This document shows positions 89-50,736 of a DNA stretch of 50,808 nucleotides, one piece after another. The translations under genes and the position numbers were made by a program. Every line of letters begins with the position of its first letter. Within the stretch, counting starts at the first letter, position 1. The notes beneath the pieces are model-generated. The model saw nothing but the letters and a program-made list of their open reading frames with translations. It had not been told where the DNA came from and ran no database searches. Where the stretch lies: the IMG/VR virus record IMGVR_UViG_3300034137_000033, positions 1 through 50,808 of that record, one strand, 5' to 3'. The DNA is from a virus (Duplodnaviria; Caudoviricetes).

Positions 89-127
89 GCCCCGATGGCG
101 AAATTGGTAGACGCAAGGGACTTAAAA
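89..127 (+). pseudogene. 5' half of host tRNA-Leu(UAA), interrupted by the prophage
   Basis: GCCCCGA-TG-GCG AAATTGGTAGA CGC-A-AGGGA-CTTAAAA. The sequence after 127 has no complementary anticodon strand, T-arm or CCA. It joins with 50691-50736 into a perfect 85-nt cloverleaf. Confidence 0.95.
119..127 (+). repeat. attL core GACTTAAAA (includes the 7-nt anticodon loop CTTAAAA)
   Basis: Identical to 50682-50690, and tRNA homology ends exactly here. Confidence 0.9.
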
Positions 128-256
128 GCATTTGAGTGTCAACACCCCTCGCATCACGCCCTCATCTTCCGTATCACCTCCACCACCCCGTAAACGCTAG
201 GCCTCGGCGCACCTTGTTGCCGAAAACATCAGCCTCCCCAAACCGACATTTTTTGT

Positions 257-278
257 CCTTGGTAGCTATTTGGGAGCT
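257..278 (+). repeat. Putative integrase arm-type sites (attL arm)
   Basis: TTGGTAGCT (259-267) and TTGGGAGCT (270-278). The same tandem motif recurs near attR at 50477-50508. Confidence 0.7.
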
Positions 279-418
279 GGAGCTCAAAATCAGGCCATCT
301 CTCGCCATCTTTCGACTGCTTATCTAAGCTCTCGACAAATTATTTTTCATCTTTCTCAAAAATATTTTCTTACAGATTCCGGCTCCCAAGCCATCGCCCC
401 GAGCTTTCTGCAGGCGAT

Positions 419-447
419 AAAAAACCCGGTCGCTGGGCCAGGTTTTT
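419..447. terminator. Likely bidirectional intrinsic terminator downstream of the excisionase-like gene
   Basis: A6, GC-rich imperfect stem-loop, T5. Confidence 0.65.
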
Positions 448-518
448 GGGGAGTGCCAGGGCGTCGTGCCAGAGCCTCGATGAGCATCGTGCTCGCAGGT
501 GTTTCAGGTAATGATGTC

Positions 519-707
519 TTAGGCTGGGCAGTACATCGTCTGCGAAAAGCGCACTACGTCTTCACGCTTGTAAAAGACTCGGCGAGTGATGTGCTTATGA
601 GCTGGGAGATCATCCTTGAACTTTCCGATGTAGCGCCAGAATCGCAGCGTCTCGGCAGACACACCAAGAATTTCCGCAGCTTCGCGGGGGTTCAGATATT
701 CCGACAT
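519..707 (-). CDS. Excisionase/recombination directionality factor (HTH_17/AlpA-like)
   Basis: 62 aa, YLNPREAAEILGVSAETLRFWR...VFYKREDV wHTH pattern, AAGGAAAG RBS, next to attL. Confidence 0.85.
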   Translation of the reverse strand: MSEYLNPREAAEILGVSAETLRFWRYIGKFKDDLPAHKHITRRVFYKREDVVRFSQTMYCPA

Positions 708-886
708 TCATCTTTCCTTTTATACGCGTTGAGATTGCAAACCAGGGTCTCTACCCCCGACTTGTCAATTCACGGTAATTGTTTGGAAAGTGGCCGTCAA
801 GGCGCAGCAGCAGACTTTTCATAGTATGCTAACACCATACCTTTAATAATTATGGGTCTATTAAAAGCATACTGTTTACCGGACAT

Positions 887-925
887 AAAAAAGCCCCGAC
901 AGGTATGAGAGAGACTGTCAGGGCT
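887..925 (-). terminator. Intrinsic terminator downstream of the primase gene
   Basis: AGCCCTGACAG...CTGTCGGGGCT stem followed by a U-run on the minus strand. Confidence 0.6.
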
Positions 926-1023
926 ACATGATTGAAGGAAAAAAGGAGGTAAACCCTCAATCACAACTAATTATAACATGGCAGATTATATAGTGTGTGA
1001 TTTTTACTCCTTTTGTTATCAAA

Positions 1024-2322
1024 TTAAAGCGTATTTATGTGCAGGTCTCCGATTTCGTTTTGAGCCTTGAATCCGTTAGTGCCAGGTTTGTATTTGATGC
1101 GAGCCATTACTATGGCACCCTCTGCTTTCATAACATCCTGAAGCTGTTCCATCGGAGTCTTTGTGGCTTTCGCGATCTTCTGGATTGTTGAGTTGCTGAT
1201 TTTTATAGCCATATCGCTGTTTCCCCTGCCATACACTCTATGCCAAAAGTGACGACCTGCGTGCTCGCCTGACATCACTTGCAACTCCATCAGGATTGTT
1301 TCGCCGCCGCTTTTGGTTGGCTTGCTGTTGAATGACTTGAATTTGATCATCGCATCATGAGTTGGCATTGCCTCAGTTGACTGCGACTTTTTGACGACAA
1401 TAGCTGTATCGACCTGCTTCTTAAATTTTCTACGGATTGAGTTGATGTGAGACTTCGCGAAGATCTGACAGGAGCGCCATGCAGCTGCATCTTGTGACTC
1501 GCCAGGTCGCGGCCTGTTTCGTGGGTATTGCATGTCGCGGAAGTACGGATCGTCTGAGTGCTCAGTGTTATCGAACTCGAACAACCTTCTTGCGATTTCC
1601 TCTTCTGTAGCTGAAGTGATCATTCCGCCGACAATTCGATTGAGTTCGTAAGAACGTCCACGGGCTCCGGTGTTGCCGGTTGCCTTGCGTGACTCTCCTG
1701 GCTTGTAAGTCATGCTTAGTCCGTAGCTGGACTGCTGAAGCTTCAGCTCAAGCACTTCGACAGGGTCGCCTGGGTTGTAAAAGCTGATTGCATGAGCAAG
1801 GCGATCAGGATGCGCGGTGTAGACGTAGTAGCACTGCGACGGGACTCTCCAGCACGGGTCAATTGCACGCAAGAGCCTGCCATCGAGAAAGCTGTCCAGG
1901 TTCTCCATCATCGCGGCACAGATCTGGTTGTGCTCTTCATGGAAGTACGGTCGGTCAGGAGTGATTACCACACGGAACCTTGGCGCGCTTAGGGTGTGGC
2001 TGTGGCTCGTATAGAGGAAGTGCTCAAGACCCAGGTCAAGGAGCGCGTCCTCGATCTCTTCAAGCGCGATCATGTCGTCGTCATACCCCTCACCAAGTTT
2101 CTGGTCGATGTCGAAGATGATCAAAGAAGACGAGACCACATTGAGGTCGCTGCGCGCCGGGATGTTAAAACTGGCCGGTACGAACGTCATGGCATTCGTT
2201 TTCTCGACCAAAACCTTTGGCTGTTCAAAGTGCTTTTCGAACAGCGTTTTTAATGAGTCAGCTGACTTGTTCGAAACGTAGTTCGTTGAGGCAGTCGTCT
2301 GTGTTGCATATCTAATGGTCAT
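1024..2322 (-). CDS. AEP/PrimPol-type primase with C-terminal DUF669-like (OB/SSB-like) domain
   Basis: IIFDID (DxD), LYTSHSH and PRFRVVI AEP motifs. C-terminal KPTKSGGE..LQVMSGEHAGRHFW..KAQNEI resembles DUF669. Confidence 0.7.
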   Translation of the reverse strand: MTIRYATQTTASTNYVSNKSADSLKTLFEKHFEQPKVLVEKTNAMTFVPASFNIPARSDLNVVSSSLIIFDIDQKLGEGYDDDMIALEEIEDALLDLGLEHFLYTSHSHTLSAPRFRVVITPDRPYFHEEHNQICAAMMENLDSFLDGRLLRAIDPCWRVPSQCYYVYTAHPDRLAHAISFYNPGDPVEVLELKLQQSSYGLSMTYKPGESRKATGNTGARGRSYELNRIVGGMITSATEEEIARRLFEFDNTEHSDDPYFRDMQYPRNRPRPGESQDAAAWRSCQIFAKSHINSIRRKFKKQVDTAIVVKKSQSTEAMPTHDAMIKFKSFNSKPTKSGGETILMELQVMSGEHAGRHFWHRVYGRGNSDMAIKISNSTIQKIAKATKTPMEQLQDVMKAEGAIVMARIKYKPGTNGFKAQNEIGDLHINTL

Positions 2323-2344
2323 TTGCTCTTTCCTTTTCTTTTGA

Positions 2345-2387
2345 GGCTCTCTCTTGCCTCGATGTATTCAGTATTCAAAATGAGCAA
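2345..2387 (-). promoter_or_regulatory. Leftward promoter/operator, a mirror copy of 2711-2754
   Basis: Reverse complement reads TTGCTCATTTTGAATACT-N3-TACATC-N7-GAGAGAGCC. Confidence 0.6.
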
Positions 2388-2532
2388 AGATGGGCGCAAC
2401 TACTTTTTTATTTATTTGGGCTGCCGAGAGCTTAGGGCAGCTGTTGAGTGTGTGTCTTCCGTATTTCTGCGCTGAGCTCAGCTTCAAGGGGGTTCACAAA
2501 AAGTTTTTCTTAGTCATGCTGGGGTAAGCAGC

Positions 2533-2632
2533 CACCCCATCTACCTGTCTTCACTTTCTTATTTCTTATAAATAGAGAGGTAGTAGATGGGGTGATGGGA
2601 CAATAAAACCGTTGGTTCAGAGAAACGCTTTT
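2533..2632. repeat. Palindrome-AT-rich-palindrome element, copy 1 (candidate origin)
   Basis: 12-bp inverted repeat CACCCCATCTAC (2533-2544) / GTAGATGGGGTG (2583-2594) around an AT-rich spacer, followed by AGAGAAACGCTTTT (2619-2632). Confidence 0.6.
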
Positions 2633-2710
2633 GATCTGCCCTGTCTGGATATAGGTATACCCAAGTTAATTATTTTTGCCTAACTTGCAATAAGCATCTT
2701 GTTTCACTGC

Positions 2711-2754
2711 TTGCTCATTTTGAATACTAGCTACATCAGGGGAATGAGAGAGCC
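2711..2754 (+). promoter_or_regulatory. Rightward promoter/operator, a mirror copy of 2345-2387
   Basis: TTGCTCATTTTGAATACT-N3-TACATC-N8-GAGAGAGCC. Confidence 0.6.
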
Positions 2755-2776
2755 CCTAAAATTGAGGAAATACATA

Positions 2777-5056
2777 ATGAACAATGCAACTTCATCACAA
2801 ACTGTCATCATCGAGAACAACAAGGACGCACTTGCTGTTGCTCTTGAGCTCAGAGAGTACAAAAACACTACTCGACTGATGACTATCGACGGAAACGTCC
2901 TGAACGCTGTCTCAGTAGCCTATAAAACAGCTTCTGGACTACACAGCGCTAACGACGGTCAGATCACCCGGTCGATTTACAACATGTCAAAGATCGCAAT
3001 CGCCTTGATGATCGTTAAAGCTGACAGCAGCGACAAAGCCTTTGACACAGCAGCGTTCGAAATCGCCCGTGACGTATTTGTATCCGGGAAAACCCAGGAG
3101 AAAGCTCAGGCACTCGCTGAAGCAACTGGACGCACTCAAGACGCATGCACTTCGGAGATCAACAGCAAGCTCGAATTCCTGACGGGCAGGATGAACTCTA
3201 AGACCAACCCCCTGACCGACGCCGGGGTGAATATCGAAAGCATGGAAGCCATTCGTGATGAGTTTCTTGTGTCAGGCGGCAAGTTTTTGGTGTGTGCCGG
3301 AACTGGCGAAGGCAAGTCGTCAAAGATCAACCAGCCCGTCATCCAACGCTACATCGACACCGGCAGAAAAGTTCTGGTGATCTCCCACAGGCGCTCGATC
3401 AACAAAACCCTGGCCAACATCGAGGGCATCGTCAGCTACGACGAGTGCAACGATCCCAGCGACCTGCAAAACGCAAAAGGCCTGAAGATTGTCGTCAACT
3501 CGCTCACTGCACTGAAATTCAAACGCTTCATCCAGTCAGTCGACTTGGTTGTCATCGACGAAGCTTCCCAAGTGATCTCGCACGTCCTGGGCGGCGAAGT
3601 AAAAAACCGCCAGGCTGTCTGGGAAACCCTGAATTTTGTCGTCAAAAACACGCCAAACGTCATCATGGCGGACGCTGACATCGACGCACGTTGCGCAGAG
3701 ATGATCGGGCCTGGCTACAAGCTTTTCAAGAAGCCAACTGCTCACGCTGGTATTACTGTGCAGATCGGCGACATCAACCACGTGCGTGCCCTTGCCGTAG
3801 AGGCTGCTACTGGCAGAAAAGCTGATCCTGCGAACGATATTACTGAGCTAGCGGCTACGACCGTGCTGATTGCTTGTGACGCCGTAAAAGAGGCAATGGC
3901 CCTTGCCAAAGCCATCGAGAAGCAAGGTGGCCCTGCGGCGCTGGTAGTCACCGCTGACAACGCTCAGTGGCCAGAGCAAGCTGCCTTCATCGCGAACCCA
4001 AATGTATCGAGTCACAGGGTCGTCATCTACAGTCCTGTGATCACTTCAGCCCTGTCGATCACTTCCGGCCACTTCAAAGCTCACTTCGGGGTGTTCCAAG
4101 GCCAGGTGGTGCCAAGCGATGCGATCCAGATGCTTCGCCGCGACCGCACTGCCACGTCCTTTGTGGTAGGCATCAAACAACCCCAGTACAGCAAGTCTGA
4201 AGCTGTTGAGGCGGCGTACAAGTGCAAGCCCGTGTGCCTCGACGACCTGCTCGCGACCCTGAGCTTCAAGGAAGGCGAACGAGCTAAAGCCGAAGCTCTC
4301 GTGCGATCAGAACTCAGTGCTCTGCAGTTCCAGTTCCTGGAGTACACGCATCGCAAAAACGAAGCCTGGTTGCGCGACAACATTCAAAGCACGTTGCCTG
4401 CCAGCCTCTTGGCACGTGGATTCGCTGTCGAGGTTCTGGAGCATGACGATGACCTATCTCTGGCCGGATTCAAAGCAGACAGTCAGTCCCGCAAGGCTGT
4501 TAAGCGTGACGTAGCCAAAGGCCTCAATCACGCCGTCAAGGCTGACCCAGTGACTGCTCAGCGTGTACAAGAGTTCGGCTCGGTAAATGAACAGGAATAC
4601 TTGGAGGCGTCTCGTGCAAGTGCAATTGAGGTGATGAAGGTATCGGACTTTGATCTGGGTGACGCGATGATCTGGGGGCATGGCGAAGGTGAATCCAAAA
4701 TCATCAAATTCCGTGAACTGATGAGCACCACCGAAGCCCTTGGCGCAACAGATGAGCGCAGCTCCAAACGAGTGATGGCCATGCTGAAGCCAGCTTTCGA
4801 GGTCATGACCACCGGCAACACATGGACGGGCACTGAAAGCGTTGCGCTGTTCGACACCTTGAACGCGATTCGCACTGACGTCCTCAAAGCCGGAATTAGG
4901 ATGAGCTCGGCAAAAAGCGATCAAGCCAAGAAAGCCGACATTACTAAGATCTTCAACCAGCTTGGACTTGTCGTCAAAAAGCACGAGACAACGAACAAGC
5001 AGTTCTTCTACACAATTAGCCCGAAATCACTGGCTCAAATGACCCGCTACATCTGA
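2777..5056 (+). CDS. Replication protein, SF2 helicase of the origin-binding (UL9/N15-RepA-like) type
   Basis: Walker A AGTGEGKS, SHRRS, Walker B VIDEASQ, MADAD, YSPVITSALSI, QMLRRDR. Start moved to ATG 2777 (GAGG RBS). Confidence 0.75.
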   Translation: MNNATSSQTVIIENNKDALAVALELREYKNTTRLMTIDGNVLNAVSVAYKTASGLHSANDGQITRSIYNMSKIAIALMIVKADSSDKAFDTAAFEIARDVFVSGKTQEKAQALAEATGRTQDACTSEINSKLEFLTGRMNSKTNPLTDAGVNIESMEAIRDEFLVSGGKFLVCAGTGEGKSSKINQPVIQRYIDTGRKVLVISHRRSINKTLANIEGIVSYDECNDPSDLQNAKGLKIVVNSLTALKFKRFIQSVDLVVIDEASQVISHVLGGEVKNRQAVWETLNFVVKNTPNVIMADADIDARCAEMIGPGYKLFKKPTAHAGITVQIGDINHVRALAVEAATGRKADPANDITELAATTVLIACDAVKEAMALAKAIEKQGGPAALVVTADNAQWPEQAAFIANPNVSSHRVVIYSPVITSALSITSGHFKAHFGVFQGQVVPSDAIQMLRRDRTATSFVVGIKQPQYSKSEAVEAAYKCKPVCLDDLLATLSFKEGERAKAEALVRSELSALQFQFLEYTHRKNEAWLRDNIQSTLPASLLARGFAVEVLEHDDDLSLAGFKADSQSRKAVKRDVAKGLNHAVKADPVTAQRVQEFGSVNEQEYLEASRASAIEVMKVSDFDLGDAMIWGHGEGESKIIKFRELMSTTEALGATDERSSKRVMAMLKPAFEVMTTGNTWTGTESVALFDTLNAIRTDVLKAGIRMSSAKSDQAKKADITKIFNQLGLVVKKHETTNKQFFYTISPKSLAQMTRYI

Positions 5057-5126
5057 TTCATCAAGCGCCATGGAGGGCGCATTAATATACCCAATATAAA
5101 TATTTCGACAAACTTGCTCTGCGCTA

Positions 5127-5155
5127 TTGAATGGCCAAATGCTCATATTTATTAT
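5127..5155 (+). promoter_or_regulatory. sigma70-like promoter
   Basis: TTGAAT-17 bp-TATTAT, same layout as 44574-44602. Confidence 0.6.
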
Positions 5156-5191
5156 GGAAGGTATAGCAAGAATAAAAAAAGGAAAAGCTAT

Positions 5192-5863
5192 ATGACTGCG
5201 TTTATTGACCTGAGCAACACCTCATATACTGATGAAATCGACATGACTGAAGTCGATGAAGTTAGGACATGCTTGCTCAAGCCCTGGGGATTCAAAGAGC
5301 TCAACAGAGACCTACTTCGAAACATTGCAGAGACTTGTCTTATCGCATTGCACAAGGTCGCATGGAACGAACATAACGCACAGCGATTCAACAACAAGGT
5401 CGTCACGCAAGATGATGTTATCTTTCAGCCATCTCTGCCACCTGTACCAAGGCCATACCGTAGCTGGCCTGAAGCGTATATCATGATCTTCGGTGGTCTT
5501 CAGGATTGCGAGTACGAACCCAAAAGCTCAAAATTTAAGTATGTGACTGAGCACACGTACCAGCCCGACTCTGTCGACCCAACCAATCCTAAGATCGTTT
5601 TCGAAATTAAGGGGGTCATTCCCACCCTGGTTGACGCCAAGAAGTACAGATCAGTCGCCGAGCAAAACGGCATCTACATCATATTCATCCTCCAAGAGAA
5701 GGACATCATCTGCCCATGGTCTAGACCCCGTAAGGATGGCACTCGGATGACTCTGGAAGAGTGGATGGGTAAGGAGAAGTTCGAATACTGCTACCAGGGC
5801 GAGGAAGACGCTTTTCGTAAGACGGATAAGTATAGGAAGCTAGTCGCCACATTCGGCAAGTAA
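5192..5863 (+). CDS. PD-(D/E)xK endonuclease, T7 endonuclease I-like
   Basis: EHTYQPD...VFEIKG...KKYRSV...IIFIL motif. Start ATG 5192. Confidence 0.7.
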   Translation: MTAFIDLSNTSYTDEIDMTEVDEVRTCLLKPWGFKELNRDLLRNIAETCLIALHKVAWNEHNAQRFNNKVVTQDDVIFQPSLPPVPRPYRSWPEAYIMIFGGLQDCEYEPKSSKFKYVTEHTYQPDSVDPTNPKIVFEIKGVIPTLVDAKKYRSVAEQNGIYIIFILQEKDIICPWSRPRKDGTRMTLEEWMGKEKFEYCYQGEEDAFRKTDKYRKLVATFGK

Positions 5864-5895
5864 TACTGCAACACCAAACATGACTTACAGAACAC

Positions 5896-5920
5896 AAGGG
5901 CCATGATGGCTCTTTTTTTT
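5896..5920 (+). terminator. Intrinsic terminator
   Basis: AGGGCCAT-G-ATGGCTCT stem followed by a T-run. Confidence 0.65.
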
Positions 5921-5997
5921 GCTTAAATTTTGCGCACAAATAAAGCCTTTATATTAGTGTTACAATATCTGCATAAGAATAATAATAAGAGCGCGAC

Positions 5998-6519
5998 ATG
6001 CGAAGAATTCTTGGGGTCGATCCTGGCAAGGATGGCGGTTTATCTATCATCGATGAGCAATTCAATCTGATTGCGTCTATGCCTATGCCTGTAATCCTCG
6101 GGATCAAGAACAAAAGGAAAAGCAACAAGGTTACTAAGTTGCGTGTTGATCCTCTTCAGGTCTATGAATTCATTAGTCGCTACAAGCCCGAGATGGCAGT
6201 GGTTGAACTGGTAGGGTCGATGACTGGTGATGGTGGCGCCTCAATGTTTAGCTTCGGCGATTCATATGGAGTTGTGCGCTCACTTGCCGAGGCTTTGTGT
6301 CCTCAGGTTATCTATGCCAGGCCACAAGACTGGAAGCGCTTTCAAGGTCTATCAGGGCTCTCCAAGGAACAGGTTGCCGAGGTCGCCTACGAGGTCTTTG
6401 GCGAAGAGCAGATTTACGGCAAGCCATATAAGCGTAATGGACAAGTTAAACGTAGGGCCTTCGACGGTATATCGGACTCCTTGATGATCGCCAAATACGG
6501 CGTGAGATTCCTGGAGTAA
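5998..6519 (+). CDS. RuvC-like Holliday junction resolvase (phage type)
   Basis: ILGVDPGKDGG, AVVE, MFSFGDSYG, RPQDWK, DSLMIA. Confidence 0.8.
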   Translation: MRRILGVDPGKDGGLSIIDEQFNLIASMPMPVILGIKNKRKSNKVTKLRVDPLQVYEFISRYKPEMAVVELVGSMTGDGGASMFSFGDSYGVVRSLAEALCPQVIYARPQDWKRFQGLSGLSKEQVAEVAYEVFGEEQIYGKPYKRNGQVKRRAFDGISDSLMIAKYGVRFLE

Positions 6520-6522
6520 GCC

Positions 6523-7032
6523 ATGAGTCGCACGCGCATGCTTGATAAGAAGCTTCTCCGTGAAATCGTGAAAGGTGTCGAAAGAACCTCCACGGTCGAG
6601 CTCGCCTGCGCGATTGCCAAGATTTCTGAAGCGGCATTTTACAAGTGGCAGGCTATGGGCCGAGAGCTGTTAGAGACCATTGAGCAAGGCAATGATATCG
6701 ATGCTGCCGACGAGATTTACGTCGAGTTTGTGGAGTCGATTGAGCGTGCTCGATACATTTCGTGCCTCCCTGCTGTGGATACCATCCAGAAAGCAATCAA
6801 GATGGGTGACGTGAAGGCAGCGGAAAAATTCCTGTCACGCCGTATGCCTGGTCAGTTCGGTGACTACGAGCGCAAAGAGGTCACGATTAAAAGTGATTCC
6901 AACCTTGATGACGGCACTGGCATCGCTCTGGTTACTACGCTAGCTGCCGGCCAAGACCTGGATCAGCTACTCCAACAACAGCAATCCGACGCGCTTTTGC
7001 TCGCAAAAACAAAAACAAGTGAACTCTCATAA
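6523..7032 (+). CDS. Terminase small subunit (putative)
   Basis: N-terminal HTH (ACAIAKISEAAFYKW), FVESIERAR, AAEKFLSRR..FG. Lies upstream of the large subunit. Confidence 0.65.
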   Translation: MSRTRMLDKKLLREIVKGVERTSTVELACAIAKISEAAFYKWQAMGRELLETIEQGNDIDAADEIYVEFVESIERARYISCLPAVDTIQKAIKMGDVKAAEKFLSRRMPGQFGDYERKEVTIKSDSNLDDGTGIALVTTLAAGQDLDQLLQQQQSDALLLAKTKTSELS

Positions 7033-7051
7033 TAATAAGAAAGGCATTCAA

Positions 7052-7678
7052 ATGATTAAGCAAAGAAGTTGGGGCGATTGCGGGGTTGCTGCCCTGGCAA
7101 ACTCGATCAGGTTTTCTCCGTCGTACGAAGCAGCTTTGGAGATGCTTGGTGGTCGTGATTGCGGTATTACAATGCAAGAAATTTGCTCGGCTATTTACGA
7201 CAAAGGAAATGCCTTACCTCTTTACCTACCGCTTGACGGATTTGGGGCTGAGGCAAATATCTCTAACGCCAGAACATCCGATTTCAAAGAAACACTGGGG
7301 AAGTTTAAAGCTCACAATGGGAATAAGCGTGCAATCCTTCAAGTGAAGACAAAGTCCGGGATGCTTCATTTCATTTATTTTGATGGAGAAAATATCCATG
7401 ACCCATCTCCGTCAGCTCCACCTAGCCCGGACTTTAGTAATTACGAATCTGTGATTGATGGGGTCTTCCTGCTCGACATTTACCATTCAGGCGGCATGAT
7501 CTCCAGCAAGTCTGGTGAAAAGACCGCTGCCCAGAAGATCGCGGAGTACGAGGCTGCTCGAACAATCACGATTACTAACACAGTACAGGAGTCCCTTGAG
7601 CCCCAGGCGGGCTGTTTTATCAGTTACGGACGCGGGCCAGCCCCCACCCGCAGGTGGATTACGGACAAAGGTTTGTGA
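7052..7678 (+). CDS. C39-like cysteine peptidase domain protein
   Basis: KQRSWGDCGVAALA (Q..C), HFIYFDG (H), IHDP (D). Start ATG 7052 after an AATAATAAG leader. Confidence 0.65.
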   Translation: MIKQRSWGDCGVAALANSIRFSPSYEAALEMLGGRDCGITMQEICSAIYDKGNALPLYLPLDGFGAEANISNARTSDFKETLGKFKAHNGNKRAILQVKTKSGMLHFIYFDGENIHDPSPSAPPSPDFSNYESVIDGVFLLDIYHSGGMISSKSGEKTAAQKIAEYEAARTITITNTVQESLEPQAGCFISYGRGPAPTRRWITDKGL

Positions 7679-7783
7679 TCAAACAGTGCCAGGCGCTTGT
7701 GCGCAAACAGGCTGTTTCGTGTGCGGTACGGGAAGGTGCTTTGTGATCCGTATACGGGACACTAAGGCCGGAAAGGTGCGCTT

Positions 7784-9310: not shown

Positions 9311-9379
9311 TCTCAGAAGTTTGTCGTCAAACAAAGTACAATAGTTGTAGCCAAATAATAATAAGAATAGGCGCTATAT

Positions 9380-10690: not shown

Positions 10691-10738
10691 CGATCTGTGG
10701 CCTACTGCCAGCTGGTAGGCCACAGGACACGGACAGCT

Positions 10739-11455: not shown

Positions 11456-11513
11456 CCTGTATTCCACCTGGCCTTTTCCCTATACTCGCTACACTAAATA
11501 TCTGAGGTGTTAT

Positions 11514-11885: not shown

Positions 11886-11907
11886 GACTGTTTGAGTACA
11901 AACAATC

Positions 11908-11929: not shown

Positions 11930-11934
11930 GCTAA

Positions 11935-33114: not shown

Positions 33115-33116
33115 GT

Positions 33117-40023: not shown

Positions 40024-40054
40024 CCACTTAATAATAAGAATAAAAGGGTTTCCG

Positions 40055-42421: not shown

Positions 42422-42423
42422 GA

Positions 42424-43083: not shown

Positions 43084-43411
43084 GTTCTAACTCCTCAGCT
43101 TCACGCTTATAAAATGGGGGCTCAACATTAAGCAGTGCAGCGCCAAGGAGGAATACACCAACATTTTCCCAGATCATCTCACCCATGAAGGGTAGTAATG
43201 TGCTAGAGCCAGGTAGGATCGTTGCCATTATCGCAATTGGATATCCGAGCAAGTCCATAACTAGAGATGGGGCATGATAGCCGTGCAGCAAATTGCGTGC
43301 AGAAATTACTGTCTCGCTGAATGTTTGAAGCTCAGTCGAAGACGCGAGTAGAAAACCTGGCGCGACGACGCTAAACATAAATACTGCCCACACCACTCGA
43401 TAGATACGCAT
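43070..43411 (-). CDS. Small integral membrane protein
   Basis: 2-3 hydrophobic segments, GGGAG RBS. Confidence 0.6.
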   Translation of the reverse strand: MRIYRVVWAVFMFSVVAPGFLLASSTELQTFSETVISARNLLHGYHAPSLVMDLLGYPIAIMATILPGSSTLLPFMGEMIWENVGVFLLGAALLNVEPPFYKREAEELEHAAA

Positions 43412-43479
43412 ACAACTCCCTTGCACTGTAAGTTTGCATCAATGCTACGTGTAGGCAACTAGCGTGAAAAGCGTTTTTA

Positions 43480-44460
43480 CTACGCAGTTACATACCCAAT
43501 TGTGGTTTTTCTAATAACTCCCAAACTCTCTGCGTTCCTGAAAATCTGACCAGCTCGGAGGTTCCCGATCCGTGAGTTTTTCGCGAATTCCTTGAGCTTC
43601 ACCGGCGTGCCGGGTGCCAAGGTTTTTGCGTGAAAAACCAGGGTTTTCAGGATTTCTGCGTTGGAATCCGGCAGCGTTTCTCCAGTTTTCGGCGTTTCTG
43701 GCGTTTCCGTCACCTCCTGTGGCATGCCAGTCACCTTAACTTCCGATGATGGCGTTTCGCTAGCTTCTGAGGCTACAACACCCGCGCTAGAGCGTCCAGA
43801 GCTTCTGACGCCAGCTAGGATGAGTGCCGGAACTATCTCCAGGGCCATGGCGAAGCCGAGGCACAGAAACTGCGCAAGCAGCGGAGGCAGGCTCGACGCT
43901 TTAGCAACACCAGATTTGATGTGCGCGATCTCCAGGGAGCCTTCATTAAGGCGTGCTAGTGCCTGAGCGCGCTGAGCTGCCGCACGAGAGCTTACTGACT
44001 CTTCAAGCTCCAAGGCCTTGGAAACCATTCCACGCGCCCGCAGATCATTAGCCTGTAACCCCGCATCGGCGATCTCTTTATCAAGGTGTGAGATCAGTGC
44101 TGAGTCTTTCTGAGCCATTGCAATCAATGCATTAACACGGTCAGTAGTCATTACTTCGTGAGTTGCTTTGCTGACGCTAATCGAAGTCATGAGTCGATCA
44201 TAAGTGGCCCAACCGCTAACACCCGAAAGCATCAGGGCGCATGCAATTGTCAGCACTGCACTTGTGCCACGCAAAACACGAATGGCAACAGGCCACGCCA
44301 GATACTTGAAAATATCCAGGAGCACGGCTGCAGACGCAAACAGAAGCGCCAGGTTCTTGTCTTCAATCAATGCGTACATTGCAAAGGCAACGGAAATTGC
44401 AGTTACGCTAGACAAAAGGAATGCGATTGCGACAAGTAATGCCGACAGCTTTTTGCTCAT
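43480..44460 (-). CDS. Membrane protein with coiled coil and C-terminal FtsK-gamma-like winged helix
   Basis: 3 N-terminal TMs, coiled coil, a 4th TM, ETP-rich linker, then RIGNLRAGQIFRNAESLGVI. Confidence 0.6.
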   Translation of the reverse strand: MSKKLSALLVAIAFLLSSVTAISVAFAMYALIEDKNLALLFASAAVLLDIFKYLAWPVAIRVLRGTSAVLTIACALMLSGVSGWATYDRLMTSISVSKATHEVMTTDRVNALIAMAQKDSALISHLDKEIADAGLQANDLRARGMVSKALELEESVSSRAAAQRAQALARLNEGSLEIAHIKSGVAKASSLPPLLAQFLCLGFAMALEIVPALILAGVRSSGRSSAGVVASEASETPSSEVKVTGMPQEVTETPETPKTGETLPDSNAEILKTLVFHAKTLAPGTPVKLKEFAKNSRIGNLRAGQIFRNAESLGVIRKTTIGYVTA

Positions 44461-44573
44461 CTTGAGCTCCGAAATCTCTGTATAAGTCCATTATATAAGG
44501 GGTTCCAGGCAGTGCAATAGCATAGCTGGGCTATTTGACATCAAACTACCTTCATATAGATTGCATTTATTTA

Positions 44574-44602
44574 TTGAGTGGACGAGTCCAATTCAATATT
44601 AT
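44574..44602 (+). promoter_or_regulatory. sigma70-like promoter
   Basis: TTGAGT-17 bp-TATTAT. Confidence 0.55.
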
Positions 44603-44635
44603 GTTTATAAATCCCGAACAAAAAGGAAAACAATA

Positions 44636-45088
44636 ATGGGCATCAAGGTATCGATTAATCACCAAGCAATTGCTGAAGCGCTTATTAAAAGCGGCGATCT
44701 TCATCGCGATGGTTGCGGATGCGGACTTTCATATGAGCACGATGAGGCTCAGGAACTTCAGGAGTTAATTGATATTAGTCTGGATGTAATCGAAGTGTTC
44801 GGCGAAGCCGGCTTACGCGCACTCGTGAATCAAGCGGAGAAACGTGCAGACGAATTGGATCTGAAAGTTCGTGCAGCGGAAGCGCAGGCTAAGGCGGAAG
44901 CCGAAAAAACCTTGGGTGAGGCTCAGCTGTCGGAGTACGACCAATTGGCCCTCATGAGCGCTGTTGGCAGTATCGGTGGGGATATCGACGCATACGACCT
45001 CGCGAAGACGCTGGTGCGCCGCAAGGTCTATTCAGTCGCCGAAATTATGCGTCTCTCAAGCGTGCAGCTGAGGCATCTACTCTCGTAA
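44636..45088 (+). CDS. Hypothetical protein
   Basis: 150 aa, AAGGA RBS, own promoter. Confidence 0.6.
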   Translation: MGIKVSINHQAIAEALIKSGDLHRDGCGCGLSYEHDEAQELQELIDISLDVIEVFGEAGLRALVNQAEKRADELDLKVRAAEAQAKAEAEKTLGEAQLSEYDQLALMSAVGSIGGDIDAYDLAKTLVRRKVYSVAEIMRLSSVQLRHLLS

Positions 45089-45502
45089 AAACGACTCAGC
45101 CAGCAAGGTGGCCAGGGGCGCAGGTTTCTGGCCTTTTTCGAATGACGCCACTAGAAATGTTTTGCCGGTACGGTCGCGAAGCACCATGCCTTCTTTGACC
45201 AGGCGTGCTTCGACGTGCATCTCTGCGAAAAGCCCGAAAGCAGTCGTGTCGCCGTCCACTTGGCCATAGATCCAGCCAGCTTCGTCGGCTACGACTTCAC
45301 TCAGAACATGGTCAGACGGTCGGAAAGCTCTCTTGATCATCCTGCCGACCCTCCTGGCACCCTTGGCCATCATCACGAATAACCATATCGCCGGGATAAG
45401 TGGAATCGAAATCAGGATTCCACCCCACACGTTGATCTGATGCACAACCCAGCGCAGCAGGCTCCACAATGTCCGTAATGGAACCATCCAGTTGACCCTC
45501 AC
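45077..45502 (-). CDS. Hypothetical membrane protein
   Basis: One TM, GTGA overlap with the upstream ORF. Confidence 0.55.
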   Translation of the reverse strand: MRVNWMVPLRTLWSLLRWVVHQINVWGGILISIPLIPAIWLFVMMAKGARRVGRMIKRAFRPSDHVLSEVVADEAGWIYGQVDGDTTAFGLFAEMHVEARLVKEGMVLRDRTGKTFLVASFEKGQKPAPLATLLAESFLRE

Positions 45503-45810
45503 GATTGATCTCCCTCAGTTGTGGCGCTTGCTGGCTTGTCGTGCAGAAAGCTCAGGGCAAGCAGAGCGTGTATAGATTCAAACAGCGAACCAGCCTTATC
45601 ATCGAGGCTCAGTATCATGTACTCGTGCCCCTGGACGTCTTTGACGCCAATACCCATGTCATCAATCCAAGCACTGTGTATGTGGAAGGTCTGATGTAGC
45701 TCACCGTCAAATTCCTTCCCATCAACAACTCCATATGTAAGCCCGGCAACATCAATGGCATTGCCCTTATGCAAAACATATGCTTCATAAATCAATGCGC
45801 AACGAGCCAT
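45499..45810 (-). CDS. Hypothetical protein
   Basis: 103 aa, GGAGG RBS. Confidence 0.65.
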   Translation of the reverse strand: MARCALIYEAYVLHKGNAIDVAGLTYGVVDGKEFDGELHQTFHIHSAWIDDMGIGVKDVQGHEYMILSLDDKAGSLFESIHALLALSFLHDKPASATTEGDQS

Positions 45811-45903
45811 TTAACCTCCATTACATATATGCTGATTGTACCGCTTGCAAGGTTTGCCAGCAAACACTAGCATTGGAATTGTGGAATTAAGGAGCTGCAT
45901 GCT

Positions 45904-46563
45904 ATGAAACGTTTCAGAAGTATTTTGAATGCGCAGCCCGTAGCTAAGTTGTATCTAGAAAATAAGTCAGTTGACGATAGATTTAAGAAATCTGGTGCTA
46001 CAGATGAATTGACAAGATTTGCATACACACTGGCACTTCGTGGCGTGCATCCGAATAGCCTTGATTCTATTGTTGACTTCAGACTTGAAGACGTTGTTGG
46101 CCTCCTGCTGGCTGATAGAGAAACTACCCAAGGTCTCAAGCATGAGTTCGATGAGTTTCGGGTTGTTTGGCGCAGGCTTTACGACCGTGAGCGAAACCGT
46201 CGGGATGCGATTTGGCGACTAGAGTTGATCGAGCCGGGATCTAAGTCGGCTGAGCCATTCCTGGAATTACTGTCGGCAATCAGGGATGCAGACGAGACAG
46301 ATCCCATTGGGGAGGCGTTTGCGCTGGGTATTCATGAGGTCGTGGCGATGGTGCCCGTCACCTCAGTACCTGGGTGGATTGACTACGTCGCTCACGATGA
46401 TATTCCAGAACCCTGGTGCGAACGTTTCCAGCAAGCTAGCGCGGGCTCGACAGCTACGATCCGTGGGAATTATGCGTACGATTGGGAGAAGTTTGTACGG
46501 CTTTGGGAGGTAGAAATGGACATGATAGCTAAACACGAGCTGGCACGTGGGGAGCCGCTATGA
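45904..46563 (+). CDS. Hypothetical protein
   Basis: 219 aa, AAGGAG RBS, ATGA-coupled to the exonuclease gene. Confidence 0.65.
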   Translation: MKRFRSILNAQPVAKLYLENKSVDDRFKKSGATDELTRFAYTLALRGVHPNSLDSIVDFRLEDVVGLLLADRETTQGLKHEFDEFRVVWRRLYDRERNRRDAIWRLELIEPGSKSAEPFLELLSAIRDADETDPIGEAFALGIHEVVAMVPVTSVPGWIDYVAHDDIPEPWCERFQQASAGSTATIRGNYAYDWEKFVRLWEVEMDMIAKHELARGEPL

Positions 46564-47024
46564 AAATTGTTGTGGACTGCGAATTCACACAGCTCAATGC
46601 TACCGCCAGGCTCATCTCTATGGCGCTGGTTGCTGAAGACGGTCAAGAGCTCTACTTCGAGCTTAGCGATAATTGCGTCCTAGCTGACTGCAGTGATTTC
46701 GTTGTTGAGAGGGTGTTGCCACAGCTAACTGGAAGTAGCGCCTCAATTTCACTGGACGCTGCAAGGCAGGAATTGTTGGCGTTCCTGGGTCGCTTCGATA
46801 ATGCCGAAATCATGTCTGACGCGCCCGCATGGGACTGGGAGTTCTTCTGTGATATCGCTTACCACAACGGAAAATGGCCGATTAATGTATCCAATAGACC
46901 ACTCAATTTGATTGACATATTCAATGATAAAGACGTGCCGGGTGAAGATGCGCCCGAGCTTCCGCATCATGCGTTGCTCGACGCCAGATTACTAATGAAC
47001 TACTACAAGCGCCTTCTCAAATAG
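46560..47024 (+). CDS. DEDDh 3'-5' exoribonuclease (Rv2179c/DUF5051-like)
   Basis: VVDCEFT, LISMALV, SDAPAWDW, HHALLDAR. Confidence 0.85.
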   Translation: MKIVVDCEFTQLNATARLISMALVAEDGQELYFELSDNCVLADCSDFVVERVLPQLTGSSASISLDAARQELLAFLGRFDNAEIMSDAPAWDWEFFCDIAYHNGKWPINVSNRPLNLIDIFNDKDVPGEDAPELPHHALLDARLLMNYYKRLLK

Positions 47025-48171
47025 CTAGCTCTAGTTCGTCGGGAATATTTAATTGCTGTCCAGGTACATACTCAATGTACTTTCGCTTGAGCCTGCACTC
47101 CTGAGGCTTGAATAGCGCGTCAAATATAGCATCGATGAGCTCCAGAATTTCCTTGATCATCTTTTGAACTTCGTAATCCCTTGCTGTGAACTTGATATAG
47201 ATTGGCTTTCTTCTGCGCCCGCTGACTGCGATGAATTCATAGTAGTAGATTCTAGCTCTTTCTTGGTCTTCGCTATCTCTTCTTGCAATTTCATTCTGAA
47301 GTTCACGAATGGTTTCGGGGTCATAATGTATTCCTTCCTGTGTAGTTAGTTTGTGCCAAGTCAATCTTGAGCGCTTGAGCTGTCTACCACTTATATGTTT
47401 GCCGTCAAACTCGAAACTGATCCCCTTTGGCTGGCCTTCATCATTGAGCGTGAGGTTGATGTAGACCTTCTGCTTTCTCAGGGCTCTTACGAAGTCGAAC
47501 ATGTCGCCCTGGGTTGCGTTTGTGGCTTCGATAGCACCCGCGATCTTCGCAATCATTTTGTGCTTCAGGGGCAAGTCGTTGTCGCGGACTGAAGCTTGGA
47601 GTTCAGCATGGGTGATCGAGACGCCCCAGGTGTCTTTCGGCCTTGGTGCTTTGGTGAGTCCGAAGCGGTCTTCGATCTCAGACACTGAGTCCATGCTGAC
47701 GCTTCGCTCATTACTATCTTTGACCATTGAGAACGTGTCATCGAGACGGATGCGGTTTGCGACGATGTGAACGTGCTGATGATCTTTGTCTTGATGCATT
47801 ACGGCGACGTACTGAGTCGTTTCGTCGAAGCCTAGGTCTGTCATGTACTTTGTGACCGCCTGACGCCATTGCGGGGTTGTCAGGGACTCTCCGGGGCGCA
47901 GGGACAGCATTGCGTGGAAGACCGGTTTAATGGCCTTCTCAGAGTCGATGGCGAAGCGCCTGAGCGTCTCAACCTGGTCGAATTCGCGGATCATCTCCGA
48001 AAGGTCTGACTCGTTGCCCTGCAGGACGCCTGGCAGTGGGTCTTTGCTCATAGTGTTGAAGCTGATCGTCCGGATGCCAGAGATCTCATGGTCGTGCTTC
48101 GTGCAGCCGAAAATGTAGCGGATTCGGTTTTTGAAAGAGCCTGAGGACTTCGGGAAAATCTTGCCGATCAT
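47017..48171 (-). CDS. Conjugative relaxase (HUH, MOBP-like)
   Basis: N-terminal MIGKI..GSF..RIRYI (catalytic Tyr), PVFHAMLSLRPGE, HQDKDHQHVHIVANR. Confidence 0.93.
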   Translation of the reverse strand: MIGKIFPKSSGSFKNRIRYIFGCTKHDHEISGIRTISFNTMSKDPLPGVLQGNESDLSEMIREFDQVETLRRFAIDSEKAIKPVFHAMLSLRPGESLTTPQWRQAVTKYMTDLGFDETTQYVAVMHQDKDHQHVHIVANRIRLDDTFSMVKDSNERSVSMDSVSEIEDRFGLTKAPRPKDTWGVSITHAELQASVRDNDLPLKHKMIAKIAGAIEATNATQGDMFDFVRALRKQKVYINLTLNDEGQPKGISFEFDGKHISGRQLKRSRLTWHKLTTQEGIHYDPETIRELQNEIARRDSEDQERARIYYYEFIAVSGRRRKPIYIKFTARDYEVQKMIKEILELIDAIFDALFKPQECRLKRKYIEYVPGQQLNIPDELELAI

Positions 48172-48461
48172 TTGACACCCCCCAGGTTCACTTGGGCGAT
48201 GTACTTAACTTTTTCCAGGAGCTCACTGCCGGGCCGGTCGGCGTTTATCATAGATGCGAGATTCATGAGCTCCCTGGCAATCTGAACAACGTCTTGGCTG
48301 ACCTTGGGCTTCACCTGACCGTTAGCAACGAAGTCTCTGATAAACGCGCCTGCGGACTTGTAGCCTGCTTCGGCGATCTTGGCATTCAATGTGTCGAGCT
48401 CAGTCTTATTGAGCCTTAGGGTAATGCGGGATTCTTTGTTTTGCTTCTCAATAGTTTTCAT
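48168..48461 (-). CDS. mobC: MobC-type RHH relaxosome accessory protein
   Basis: ITLRLNKTELDTL..AG..SAGAFIRD, ELMNLASMIN. ATGA overlap with the relaxase. Confidence 0.85.
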   Translation of the reverse strand: MKTIEKQNKESRITLRLNKTELDTLNAKIAEAGYKSAGAFIRDFVANGQVKPKVSQDVVQIARELMNLASMINADRPGSELLEKVKYIAQVNLGGVK

Positions 48462-48499
48462 CTTGGGTCACCTTTTATTATTTTTATTCTGAGCCCTCA

Positions 48500-48565
48500 A
48501 CGCAACACCCGAAGGGATGTGAGTATCTAGCCTTACTTGTCTGACATAGACACAACTGGCTAAAA
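48500..48565. promoter_or_regulatory. Candidate oriT
   Basis: Directly upstream of mobC. Inverted repeat TGTCT-GACAT-AGACA (48538-48552) followed by CAACTGGCTA, resembling ColE1-type nic CTGG^CTTA. Confidence 0.5.
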
Positions 48566-48651
48566 AGAAGCTCTAGACTCATTATGCAAATGGAGCTTTA
48601 GGTGGTTCTAGTGCTTTTGCTAATTATTTTGATTTATTTGTTTGTATAACT

Positions 48652-48809
48652 AAACTTTCGCAAGGTGTGAATGCGAAATCGCAGCATGGGAGTGCGAAAT
48701 CACAAAGCACTAAAGCGAATTCGCACTCATGCACTGCGATAATCACAAGGCATGACTGTGGTTTCGCTATGACTGTGTGTGAATTCGCAAGTGCATGGTG
48801 TGAAATTGA
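48652..48809. repeat. Phased array of palindromic decamers GYGAAWTCRC (21-bp period), iteron-like
   Basis: Units start at 48673, 48694, 48715, 48736, 48758, 48779 and 48800, plus a half-site at 48652. AT-rich tract at 48621-48655. Confidence 0.75.
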
Positions 48810-48816
48810 GTAAGAG

Positions 48817-50196
48817 TTACAGACTAACTTCTTTGGTATCGAGCATCTTGGTGTCGAGGTCAGCCAGGGTGGAAAGAAGACCTCGGCACACAAAGTCTTT
48901 TTCGAGGCCAGCACTGTTCAGAATCTCAGTTTCAATCTTCGTAGCTGCATCACGGATCTCTGAGAGATACGCCATTTTGTAGCCATCGGTCACGTCAACA
49001 GTCTGTCCAGCCGAATCATGGTTGCAGAGCACCTTGATGTAAAACGCACCAACACCGGCCCGCTCAGCGACTGACATGAAGCTGGCCCGCATGATTTTGC
49101 GTGGAAGATGCTGATTGATCCTGTCAGAAATCCTGCCGAGGAAGTCCCGGACATTCGACTCACTGACCTTATCCTGCTGCACTCCTGGGAAAACATAGTC
49201 ACCGGAAGAGTGCTTCATCGAGTACATCAGCTGGCAGTAAGCAGCATCGCTCAGAACAAGATGGAACTCCTTGCCGTTTTTCAGGGTGTCTTCTTCATTT
49301 GTCTTGTTGCGTTCTGGGAAAACCACCGCACGAGTTTTATGGCAGATATAGCTTCGCCGGATCTTGTTGATCTCTCCAGGCCTAACTCCCGTGAAGAGCA
49401 TAAACAAAATCGCTGCCGAGACCGGCTTGAACGATGTAGGTACATCACGAAGCGGAGGGGTCTCGGAGATTTCTACACACCCCTTAATGAACTGACCCAG
49501 ATCCTTTGGGTTGATCCGAATCTTATCGCGCTTGGTGGTATGCCATTGCTTAGTGTGTTTCATAATATCGACAGGGTTGTACTTGTAAATCGGCTCACCG
49601 ATCTCGTTTTTATACCAGACAATCGAAAACGAAAAGATACCCCGAAGGAGGCACAAGGCTTTATTAGCAGATCGCTCCCTTGGTGGGGTAACTCGTCCAT
49701 TTGGTCTTACAGCAGGTACGGTTGTCTCGTCATGGAGGTTCACAACGTCATCACTGGTAAAGCTTGAGATAGCCCTTGGGCCGTACTTCGCCTTGATGTA
49801 GTTGTTATAAGTTCGGTTGTAGTCATCAACCGTAGTCTTGGTCAGCTTCTTGCTCTTACGTCGCATGAAGTTTTCGAATGCCATGTCCAAGGTAAGGCTG
49901 TCCCGGAGAGACTTCGTTTCCTCAGCCTGCAGGATCTCATCAAGGTTCGCGTAGATCTTCTCTGCTTGCGCTCTAATCAATGGCAGTTTGGTAGTTTTGG
50001 GATTAAAAGCCTCAAGCTTGCGGCGGTGATCTTTCCCCAATACCTTCCTGACAACATAGAAGGCCTTGCCTCCAGCCTTAGTTACACGTAATACCAAGCC
50101 TTTAGTTTCAGTGTCATAGGCGAGCATATCAGCCTTACCCTCAGGGCAAACGAGTGCCTCCAGGGAAGCTTTGGTGAAGTGAATTTTCAAAGCCAC
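48817..50196 (-). CDS. int: Tyrosine integrase with N-terminal arm-binding domain
   Basis: YDTETKGLVLRVTKAGGKAF arm domain, FTGVRPGE (R), LKNGK (K), KIMR (HxxR position), LCNH, VTDGY (Y). GTG start. Confidence 0.93.
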   Translation of the reverse strand: MALKIHFTKASLEALVCPEGKADMLAYDTETKGLVLRVTKAGGKAFYVVRKVLGKDHRRKLEAFNPKTTKLPLIRAQAEKIYANLDEILQAEETKSLRDSLTLDMAFENFMRRKSKKLTKTTVDDYNRTYNNYIKAKYGPRAISSFTSDDVVNLHDETTVPAVRPNGRVTPPRERSANKALCLLRGIFSFSIVWYKNEIGEPIYKYNPVDIMKHTKQWHTTKRDKIRINPKDLGQFIKGCVEISETPPLRDVPTSFKPVSAAILFMLFTGVRPGEINKIRRSYICHKTRAVVFPERNKTNEEDTLKNGKEFHLVLSDAAYCQLMYSMKHSSGDYVFPGVQQDKVSESNVRDFLGRISDRINQHLPRKIMRASFMSVAERAGVGAFYIKVLCNHDSAGQTVDVTDGYKMAYLSEIRDAATKIETEILNSAGLEKDFVCRGLLSTLADLDTKMLDTKEVSL

Positions 50197-50222
50197 GGGG
50201 AATCCTTACGAGTCTTAACGTG

Positions 50223-50251
50223 TTGATTTGATCTGTGTTTTCGTGTCTAAT
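50223..50251 (+). promoter_or_regulatory. Putative promoter of the phage tRNA
   Basis: TTGATT-17 bp-TCTAAT followed by a GC-rich discriminator CCACCGCC. Confidence 0.45.
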
Positions 50252-50269
50252 CCACCGCCTGCTTGCACC

Positions 50270-50354
50270 GCCTCGATGGTGAAATTGGTAGACACATCGC
50301 ACTTAAAATGCGCCGCCGAAAGGTGTACCGGTTCGACTCCGGTTCGAGGCACCA
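50270..50354 (+). tRNA. Prophage-encoded intact tRNA-Leu(UAA)
   Basis: Acceptor GCCTCGA/TCGAGGC, D-stem GTG/CAC, anticodon stem CGCA/TGCG with loop CTTAAAA, variable arm CGCC-GAAA-GGTG, T-arm ACCGG-TTCGACT-CCGGT, encoded ACCA end. Confidence 0.97.
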
Positions 50355-50476
50355 TCTCTCCTGCAACACCCATCCCACCTCGCTGCACCCACCAGAATGT
50401 CATTTGCGTCTAAAGATCTAGGGACAAAATCCGTCCATCATCTGTACGTTTTATGATCAATTCCTTGGTTGGTGAG

Positions 50477-50508
50477 CCTTGGTAGCTCTTGGGAGCCGCT
50501 TGGTAGCT
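50477..50508 (+). repeat. Putative integrase arm-type sites (attR arm)
   Basis: TTGGTAGCT (50479), TTGGGAGCC (50489), TTGGTAGCT (50500). They match 259-278. Confidence 0.7.
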
Positions 50509-50681
50509 GCCACTGAAAGCCGCTCACATCTGCCAGCATCTCTCCTCAGCGCTCACCATCTCTCGGCGACCTGGCAAAGATCACTCTAAACGCCTGATAT
50601 GCCTAGTTTTTAAGCCCAAAAGCACGGTTCTCAGCTGAGCTCAGCTCTCAGCAGCTGTTCTGGGGAGAGGTAGGGCAGAAT

Positions 50682-50690
50682 GACTTAAAA
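50682..50690 (+). repeat. attR core GACTTAAAA
   Basis: Direct repeat of 119-127. Confidence 0.9.
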
Positions 50691-50736
50691 TCCCTCGTTC
50701 TAGGACGTGCCGGTTCGACCCCGGCTCGGGGCACCA
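50682..50736 (+). pseudogene. 3' half of host tRNA-Leu(UAA)
   Basis: TCCCT pairs with AGGGA (116-120), T-arm GCCGG-TTCGACC-CCGGC, TCGGGGC-ACCA pairs with GCCCCGA (89-95). Confidence 0.95.

Follow-up and report, generated by a model that had tools for sequence, protein, structure and literature searches.

Phages that disrupt a host tRNA gene on integration and carry a tRNA for the same codon themselves were grouped under the term tRNA-dependent lysogeny by Guerrero-Bustamante and Hatfull (mBio 2024, PMC10865867), whose main text describes the strategy for several actinobacteriophage clusters, including Fionnbharth (cluster K4) and LeBron (cluster L1) at tRNA-Lys(UUU) and Gaia (cluster X) at tRNA-Leu(CAA). 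By that definition, the host tRNA that is disrupted is an essential, single-copy one. Stable lysogeny depends on the tRNA of the phage, mutants without it forming clear plaques, and int-attP plasmids need it too; the same text leaves the spread of the strategy beyond actinobacteriophages open. Here, a prophage that splits a Pseudomonas tRNA-Leu(UAA) gene and carries an intact tRNA with the same anticodon is described from the IMG/VR virus record IMGVR_UViG_3300034137_000033 (Duplodnaviria; Caudoviricetes), the whole 50,808 nt of which were analysed and are referred to as the window.

Outside the Actinobacteria, two precedents resemble this locus. Two Sinorhizobium meliloti prophages disrupt tRNA-Leu(UAG) and provide a proteobacterial case (PMC11476347, PMC12429752). 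As in the window, the evidence is in silico, integration inactivates a tRNA-Leu gene at a central site and the same-anticodon tRNA of the prophage is closer to the genes of other bacteria than to that of its host; unlike in the window, the hosts are Alphaproteobacteria, the anticodon is different and only two strains are concerned. Prophage Lj965 of Lactobacillus johnsonii, as cited in PMC10865867, is likewise reported to encode a cognate tRNA and not to rebuild the tRNA at the junction, its host being a Firmicute and not a Pseudomonas.

Four structural features of the strategy were found in the window, namely a tyrosine integrase with a tRNA gene as bacterial attachment site (attB), a short common core without rebuilding of the tRNA, a cognate tRNA and flanking arm-type repeats. 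The main text of PMC10865867 describes for the actinobacteriophages the same integrase type, an attB inside a tRNA gene, junctions at which no tRNA is rebuilt, a core of 8-17 bp (9 bp in the window), a same-anticodon phage tRNA near int, putative arm-type sites on both sides of the core and, as here, related integrases both with and without the tRNA. In contrast to those phages, the window element has a gammaproteobacterial host and concerns tRNA-Leu(UAA), the system being known here from sequence alone; the element tRNA and its upstream region are identical to a chromosomal gene found in a different Pseudomonas lineage, and the cassette also occurs, with a relaxase/NikA pair, on islands that look non-phage.

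A full-text literature search, which did not cover the supplementary tables of PMC10865867 and PMC11476347 (these may list further hosts), returned no Pseudomonas case, and in the one Pseudomonas paper containing the phrase it stands only in the reference list, where the 2024 paper is cited. This agrees with the original prediction, made from the sequence of the window, which had named precedents in actinobacteriophages and none in Pseudomonas. The strategy is already published, and what is new is the Pseudomonas host group, for which the comparative evidence is good and the claim well supported.

Split tRNA-Leu(UAA) gene and the copy carried by the prophage

The halves of the host gene and the attachment (att) sites lie at the two ends of the window.

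89..127 (+): 5' half of the host tRNA-Leu(UAA) gene, from acceptor to anticodon loop, ending in the attL core; 39 nt, exact in 41 Pseudomonas loci
119..127 (+): attL copy of the 9-bp core GACTTAAAA, covering the anticodon loop and two stem bases
259-266, 270-277 and, as an inverted copy, 382-389 (unstranded): left-arm (P') repeats TTGGKAGC, putative arm-type integrase sites
50479, 50489 and 50500, region 50479..50507 (+): right-arm (P) repeats TTGGKAGC
50682..50690 (+): attR copy of the 9-bp core
50691..50736 (+): 3' half of the host tRNA-Leu(UAA) gene, from anticodon stem to CCA; 46 nt, identical in 4 of the 41 loci

The 39-nt half had exact matches at 41 loci in the Pseudomonas genome contigs searched, and at all 41 it ran straight into a tRNA 3' half and not into phage DNA. 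The next 46 nt were exactly those of 50691-50736 at four of these loci (L009, L023, L026 and L036) and matched at 45 of 46 positions in L021, and the intact host-type gene was typed tRNA-Leu(taa) by ARAGORN in L077. As L026, in genome G001, carries both window flanks around an uninterrupted gene (upstream 88 nt ~92% identical to window 1-88; downstream flank near-identical to 50737-50808, with a 1-nt offset), this locus is an empty attB.

The core GACTTAAAA occurred in the whole window only at 119-127 and 50682-50690, and the identity between the two junctions extended over these 9 bp and no further. Neither ARAGORN nor Rfam found a tRNA at 1-400 or 50600-50808, each tool returning a single tRNA in the 50.8 kb. 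Read directly, the sequences after the left core and before the right core are unable to pair with the host halves. The duplication of the downstream tRNA part in the phage attachment site (attP) that marks conventional tRNA-restoring integration is absent, as the left junction continues into non-tRNA sequence. The element-derived sequences flanking the loop form an imperfect inverted repeat (AATGA / GCATT) that mimics the symmetry of the anticodon stem. The TTGGKAGC motif clusters at the two window ends only, apart from one stray copy, and a window-wide motif search found neither an internal core nor an internal arm-repeat cluster in the prophage body. Together, the two ends place the predicted crossover in the 7-nt anticodon loop, with an attP that would lack the tRNA 3' part.

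The original prediction had described a host gene cut at its anticodon loop, whose pieces join into a perfect 85-nt tRNA and which neither junction regenerates, the core being only 9 bp, and had proposed looking for an intact attB in relatives. These points were borne out by the intact genes of relatives (letter for letter at the four loci above), by ARAGORN, Rfam and the comparison of the junctions, and by L026.

Conventional anticodon-loop integrases, one of the sublocation classes attributed to Williams (2002; cited in PMC2647930), reportedly use an attP that carries the 3' part of the tRNA. The window resembles them in its crossover within the loop, its symmetric stem flanks and the position of int next to attP, and differs from them in that its attP is without the tRNA 3' part and the gene is not restored.

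The second tRNA lies between the integrase gene and the right-hand arm sites, outside the arm repeats.

48817..50196 (-): tyrosine integrase of 459 aa, with transcription leading away from the tRNA; Pfam PF00589, PHROG integrase E 3.8e-31
50210..50269 (+): presumed promoter region of the element tRNA (TTGATT, 17 nt, TCTAAT), with homology to the sequence preceding chromosomal tRNA-Leu(UAA) genes in other Pseudomonas
50270..50354 (+): complete element tRNA-Leu(UAA), 85 nt, with long variable arm and encoded CCA; Rfam tRNA 54.6 bits, E 4.4e-09

It starts 73 nt from the integrase start codon and ends 327 nt before the core, and its anticodon loop reads CUUAAAA in the Infernal alignment, which gives the anticodon UAA and upholds the predicted intact, same-anticodon tRNA at this position. 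It matched the split host gene at 65 of 85 positions. One U-C mismatch (U27-C43), at the top of the anticodon stem, was shared by the chromosomal genes of eight further Pseudomonas genomes, and in an alignment of 20 element and chromosomal sequences all 23 consensus cloverleaf pairs were kept, 14 of them with a compensatory change. The ARAGORN label for the element tRNA, 'Phe(aaa)', which was also given to an identical chromosomal gene (L122 6828-6912), is a miscall, since a one-base variant (L123) was typed 'Leu(taa)' and Infernal gives UAA; automated annotation of such prophages may thus hide the isoacceptor match.

Relatives of the window integrase were detected in three of the 401 sampled Pseudomonas genomes (G110, 75% identity; G294, 70%; G263, 56%). 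In all three, the host 5' half and core led into element DNA with the same arm repeats, and the other side consisted of the integrase gene, a complete tRNA-Leu(UAA), 322-335 nt, the core and a host 3' half. The host gene was split at the same loop, with cores of 9, 11 and 16 bp. The left-arm motif had the same offsets from the core in these three genomes (+126 to +142; inverted, +253 to +272), and the right-arm motif was located 189-224 nt before the core both in the related elements and in 7 metagenome loci. An order-wide search (401 genomes) added only one match, weak and stop-containing, in G754.

In metagenomes, a tRNA-Leu(UAA) adjoined the integrase gene in 8 of 14 loci, and the integrases of all eight were at least 55% identical to that of the window. 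The core and a host 3' half were visible in seven of the eight, the contig of the other (L188) ending first; L184 (46 nt of upstream flank) and L193 (4 nt) have flanks too short for assessment. One IMG/VR contig (L145) had the same right end. Across genomes, metagenomes and viral contigs, some of which may share samples and are not all independent, the cassette was joined to at least six different host 3' halves, which fits a core confined to the invariant loop. No tRNA lay beside int in the more distant relatives L189 (54%), L192, L194 and L195 (46%) and L181 (39%), in which the same core and a Leu(UAA) 3' half were found 226-320 nt from int; these relatives are seen at their int-side junction, and the viral record G404 is without a left junction.

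Taken as a whole, anatomy and comparison indicate that the window very probably holds a temperate siphovirus-like phage using tRNA-dependent lysogeny at tRNA-Leu(UAA), and the core of the original prediction, a host tRNA-Leu(UAA) destroyed and a same-anticodon copy supplied, is supported by the anatomy and by the three related genomes. The phage would integrate through its tyrosine integrase, with crossover in the anticodon loop of the host gene, and both junctions would be left as dead halves because attP has just 9 bp in common with attB and lacks the 3' part of the tRNA. In the lysogen, the phage tRNA-Leu(UAA), presumably expressed from its own upstream region and charged, would take over UUA decoding in a host that probably has no second copy, and precise excision would restore the host gene. 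A likely advantage would be docking in any tRNA-Leu(UAA) allele, since the cassette requires nothing of the site beyond the invariant loop.

Read in this manner, one phage-borne tRNA is explained as a replacement part and not as a codon-usage aid, and for annotators a 'disrupted tRNA' beside a prophage is not necessarily an error. Pseudomonas is a genetically tractable Gram-negative genus, and a complete-looking phage with an identifiable empty attB and relatives in several species could serve as a test system. The short, loop-only core combined with a self-supplied tRNA also suggests a route to integration vectors across many Pseudomonas species.

Copy number of Leu-UAA genes and competing explanations

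As the virus record comprises 50,808 bases only, the single-copy status of the window's host gene was judged from relatives. In G001, the relative with the empty site, RF00005 gave 55 matches (150 of 162 candidates scored), including 11 long-arm tRNAs: one each of Leu-TAA, Leu-CAA, Leu-TAG and Leu-GAG, two Leu-CAG, four Ser and one Tyr. In G263 (a single 6.03-Mb contig), G110 and G294, one Leu-TAA was present among the 11 long-arm tRNAs found in each, and it was the element copy. A pattern built on the D-arm and anticodon-arm of Leu-UAA matched exactly once in each of five close relatives and at least once in 328 of the 401 sampled Pseudomonas genomes, most of them exactly once; these tallies include three genomes flagged as unpublished (G154, G373 and G376), which were used in tallies only. 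The TTA codon was used 3.48 times per 1000 codons in G001 and occurred in 17 of 36 long open reading frames (ORFs) near its tRNA genes, the ORFs having been called mechanically, and this use suggests that UUA decoding is essential in Pseudomonas.

Two consequences drawn in the original prediction hold in part. Dependence of the lysogen on the prophage tRNA is supported by the three related lysogens, in which the element copy was the sole Leu-TAA found, and for the window's own host it would follow by analogy with relatives. The idea of an addiction mechanism without a toxin applies insofar as a cost would fall on imprecise loss of the right end alone; the term overstates the case, because integrase-mediated excision across the 9-bp core would restore the host gene exactly.

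Several observations weigh against dependence. The window's own host may have a second Leu-UAA gene, and two intact Leu-TAA genes were found in each of G136 and G334. The tRNA counts are not exhaustive, as in each genome RF00005 scored 150 of the 162-174 first-look candidates, and draft assemblies make up three of the four genomes counted. A scan of 50100-50808 for consensus promoters and terminators found nothing, including upstream of the tRNA. In Streptomyces, the Leu-UAA tRNA (bldA) is dispensable. Finally, in run X1, a biocrust metagenome that contained 97% of the words sampled from the right end of the window and may be its source, the empty site was about three times deeper than the junction (word depth 33.6 and 10.5), so most cells of that allele in the sample were non-lysogens.

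Two side observations concern Leu-UAA copies elsewhere. One of the two Leu-TAA genes of G136 belongs to an array (L147, G136:C1:70128-73149) of eight tRNA genes (Glu, Asp, Glu, Asp, Glu, Leu-CAA, Leu-TAA and Asn) within 1.6 kb. At L150 (G126:C2:3045111) and at G268:C113:10467, the arm pattern was matched, in the variant GGCCGGGA, outside any tRNA called by ARAGORN and was followed by non-tRNA sequence; these matches may represent a leftover half gene or the att site of a different element.

If the host retained another UUA decoder, the element tRNA could instead be an accessory gene, supplying codons to a phage of low G+C or acting as a decoy for anticodon nucleases. Such a role, which the G+C content of the phage (50.8%), its TTA use (4.15 per 1000 codons), the doubled genes of G136 and G334 and the reliance on relatives for the host's count would all allow, and for which the discussion of PMC10865867 raises anti-defence functions of phage tRNAs, is judged improbable. 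TTA use in the phage is close to that of the host relative G001, leaving little need for supply, no other Leu-TAA was found in any of the three cassette-bearing genomes, and the tRNA is always the isoacceptor destroyed by the cassette and always lies beside int and attP. Accessory and replacement roles are not mutually exclusive.

It is far less probable still that the split is an assembly chimera, or a dead, locked remnant that has kept the layout without the function. The window is a metagenome sequence, and the depth of its outer right flank (28.3) differs from that of the junction contig (10.5), as might be expected of a flank from an abundant non-lysogen strain. Beyond 50738, X1 contained two alternative flanks, one as in the window (depth 28.3) and one different (12.3), so that the last 70 nt of the window may derive from the commoner, non-lysogen strain. 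The split itself is not an assembly artefact, since a 9-bp repeat is shorter than the words of the assembler (31-mer) and cannot mislead it. Moreover, a 17-kb contig of X1 crosses the right junction and continues 21 nt past the core into the 3' half, and the same layout recurs in separate assemblies, namely G263 (a single contig), two draft genomes, 7 metagenome loci and contigs from three further runs; an assembly artefact, which the original prediction had named as a way for it to fail, is hence set aside. Core and arm repeats are also intact at either end, and the set of structural genes is complete.

These three runs (X2, X3 and X5) contained contigs of a phage ~97% identical over int, tRNA and arm and joined to a different, fluorescens-type 3' half. 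Joints in X2 and X5 were considered as excision products and rejected, being other tRNA-Leu(UAA)-like genes of mixed samples. The RNA runs X15-X20 contained less than a fifth of the sampled words.

An ordinary tRNA-restoring integrant, in which the gene would be rebuilt at one junction and the internal tRNA would be cargo, deserves next to no credence even though most tRNA-targeting integrases restore their gene (PMC10865867, table 2) and the tRNA-less relatives at 39-54% identity may be restorers: it is refuted for the window by ARAGORN and Rfam, which call no tRNA at either junction, by junction identity that stops after 9 bp, and by flanking element sequence that cannot pair with the host halves.

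Integrase cassette, its cargo and the origin of its tRNA

Two further genes accompany the integrase gene of the window.

47017-48171 (-): MobA/VirD2-type relaxase, just downstream of the integrase; Pfam PF03432, E 6.8e-24
48168-48461 (-): NikA-like protein; PF21983, E 6.3e-09

Here the relaxase and NikA-like genes sit beside the integrase gene of a tailed prophage. Homologues of both adjoin the related integrases of G110 (78-86% identity) and G263 (32-39%), the pairs lying at L198 18141-19555 and L200 17903-19439. The 20 kb beside the integrases of G110, G294 and G263 encode reverse transcriptases, SMC-like ATPases, an ABC-3C component and a UvrD helicase, and a protein search for the major head protein of the window found it absent from these three genomes and from G390. 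By its gene content, the cargo beside those three integrases looks like a non-phage, defence-island type.

In G263 (G263:C1:2681303-2801691), the two junctions of the cassette-bearing element are ~104 kb apart and the host 3' half recurs 15.6 kb past the right junction, which suggests several elements in tandem at this tRNA.

The element tRNA was identical at 85 of 85 positions to the sole Leu-UAA pattern match of G103 and at 84 of 85 to that of G058. For eight chromosomal loci, blastn matches started at 50210-50239 and ran through the tRNA, the 30-60 nt upstream of the element tRNA being homologous to those of the eight chromosomal genes; G058 shared only the tRNA and its upstream region with the other loci. 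These look-alike genes had conserved synteny, upstream synteny shared with five other species and ordinary housekeeping neighbours. Their interpretation as fossils of decayed elements was rejected on account of this setting and because neither host 3'-half remnants nor arm repeats occur nearby. Most simply, the cassette would have taken up an entire chromosomal gene, its promoter apparently included, from another Pseudomonas lineage.

A broader proposal would treat the relaxase-NikA-int-tRNA-attP block as a portable docking cassette, which, relying on the invariant anticodon loop and supplying its own tRNA, could bring unrelated cargo (a siphovirus in the window, defence-type islands in G110, G294 and G263) into any tRNA-Leu(UAA) allele across Pseudomonas, and whose tRNA may over time replace the resident gene. 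It draws on three hints, namely the agreement of the tRNA and its upstream region with the G103 gene, an integrase fragment in G116 and a second element in G390, and is regarded as rather unlikely, if still a live idea. Were it true, a cassette tRNA serving as resident gene would amount to horizontal replacement of an essential tRNA.

In G116 (L120 9628-10098), which has a single tRNA-Leu(UAA) pattern match, a broken piece of an integrase N-terminus (residues 1-105, 33-47% identity) begins 72 nt upstream of this match, with the geometry seen in the cassette. Its locus has native downstream synteny, and no att remnants were found there; the fragment may be a cassette fossil or the trace of a tRNA capture.

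In G390 (G390:C1:979568-1024906; L146, L151 and L175), a second element of ~45 kb splits the same tRNA-Leu(UAA), with the break slightly further 3'. Its arm repeats are different (TTGGTAACA), and ~4.9 kb from one of its ends, on the opposite strand, it has an intact tRNA-Leu(UAA) of its own whose sequence is quite different. A homologue of the window integrase was not found in it at E<=1e-20, and the element is apparently unrelated to that of the window.

The prophage body

The remaining features, assigned from PHROG matches, are those of a tailed phage.

128..50681 (unstranded): prophage body, ~50.6 kb, G+C 50.8%, siphovirus-like
7784-9310: large terminase
9380-10690: portal
19372-20172: scaffold
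20299-21468: major head
27040-27996: head morphogenesis
29385-30242: major tail
33117-35891: tape measure
37734-42421: tail proteins

With terminase, portal, major head, major tail, tape measure and integrase in one att-bounded unit, the element has the gene complement expected of a tailed temperate phage, and its structural gene set, as read from PHROG and Pfam, appears complete and siphovirus-type. PHROG and Pfam scans placed the replication genes in the left part of the window. Megablast of both window halves against 50,697 phage records gave zero matches; the best matches of the integrase protein in the phage collection were integrases of Acinetobacter and Moraxella phages, 21-25% identical, with no cultured relative there. 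The ORF at 270-824 was considered as a gene run from the host tRNA promoter and rejected: its translation is not protein-like, and its similarity to relatives lies at the DNA level, in the att arm.

The packaging and head genes are split, with terminase and portal occupying 7.8-10.7 kb, and scaffold and major head 19.4-21.5 kb. These two blocks are separated by a mostly minus-strand one, which contains at 12717-14418 (-) a pair of genes resembling UmuD (Peptidase_S24) and UmuC (a Y-polymerase of the IMS family), the larger of which is labelled 'DNA polymerase' in PHROGs.

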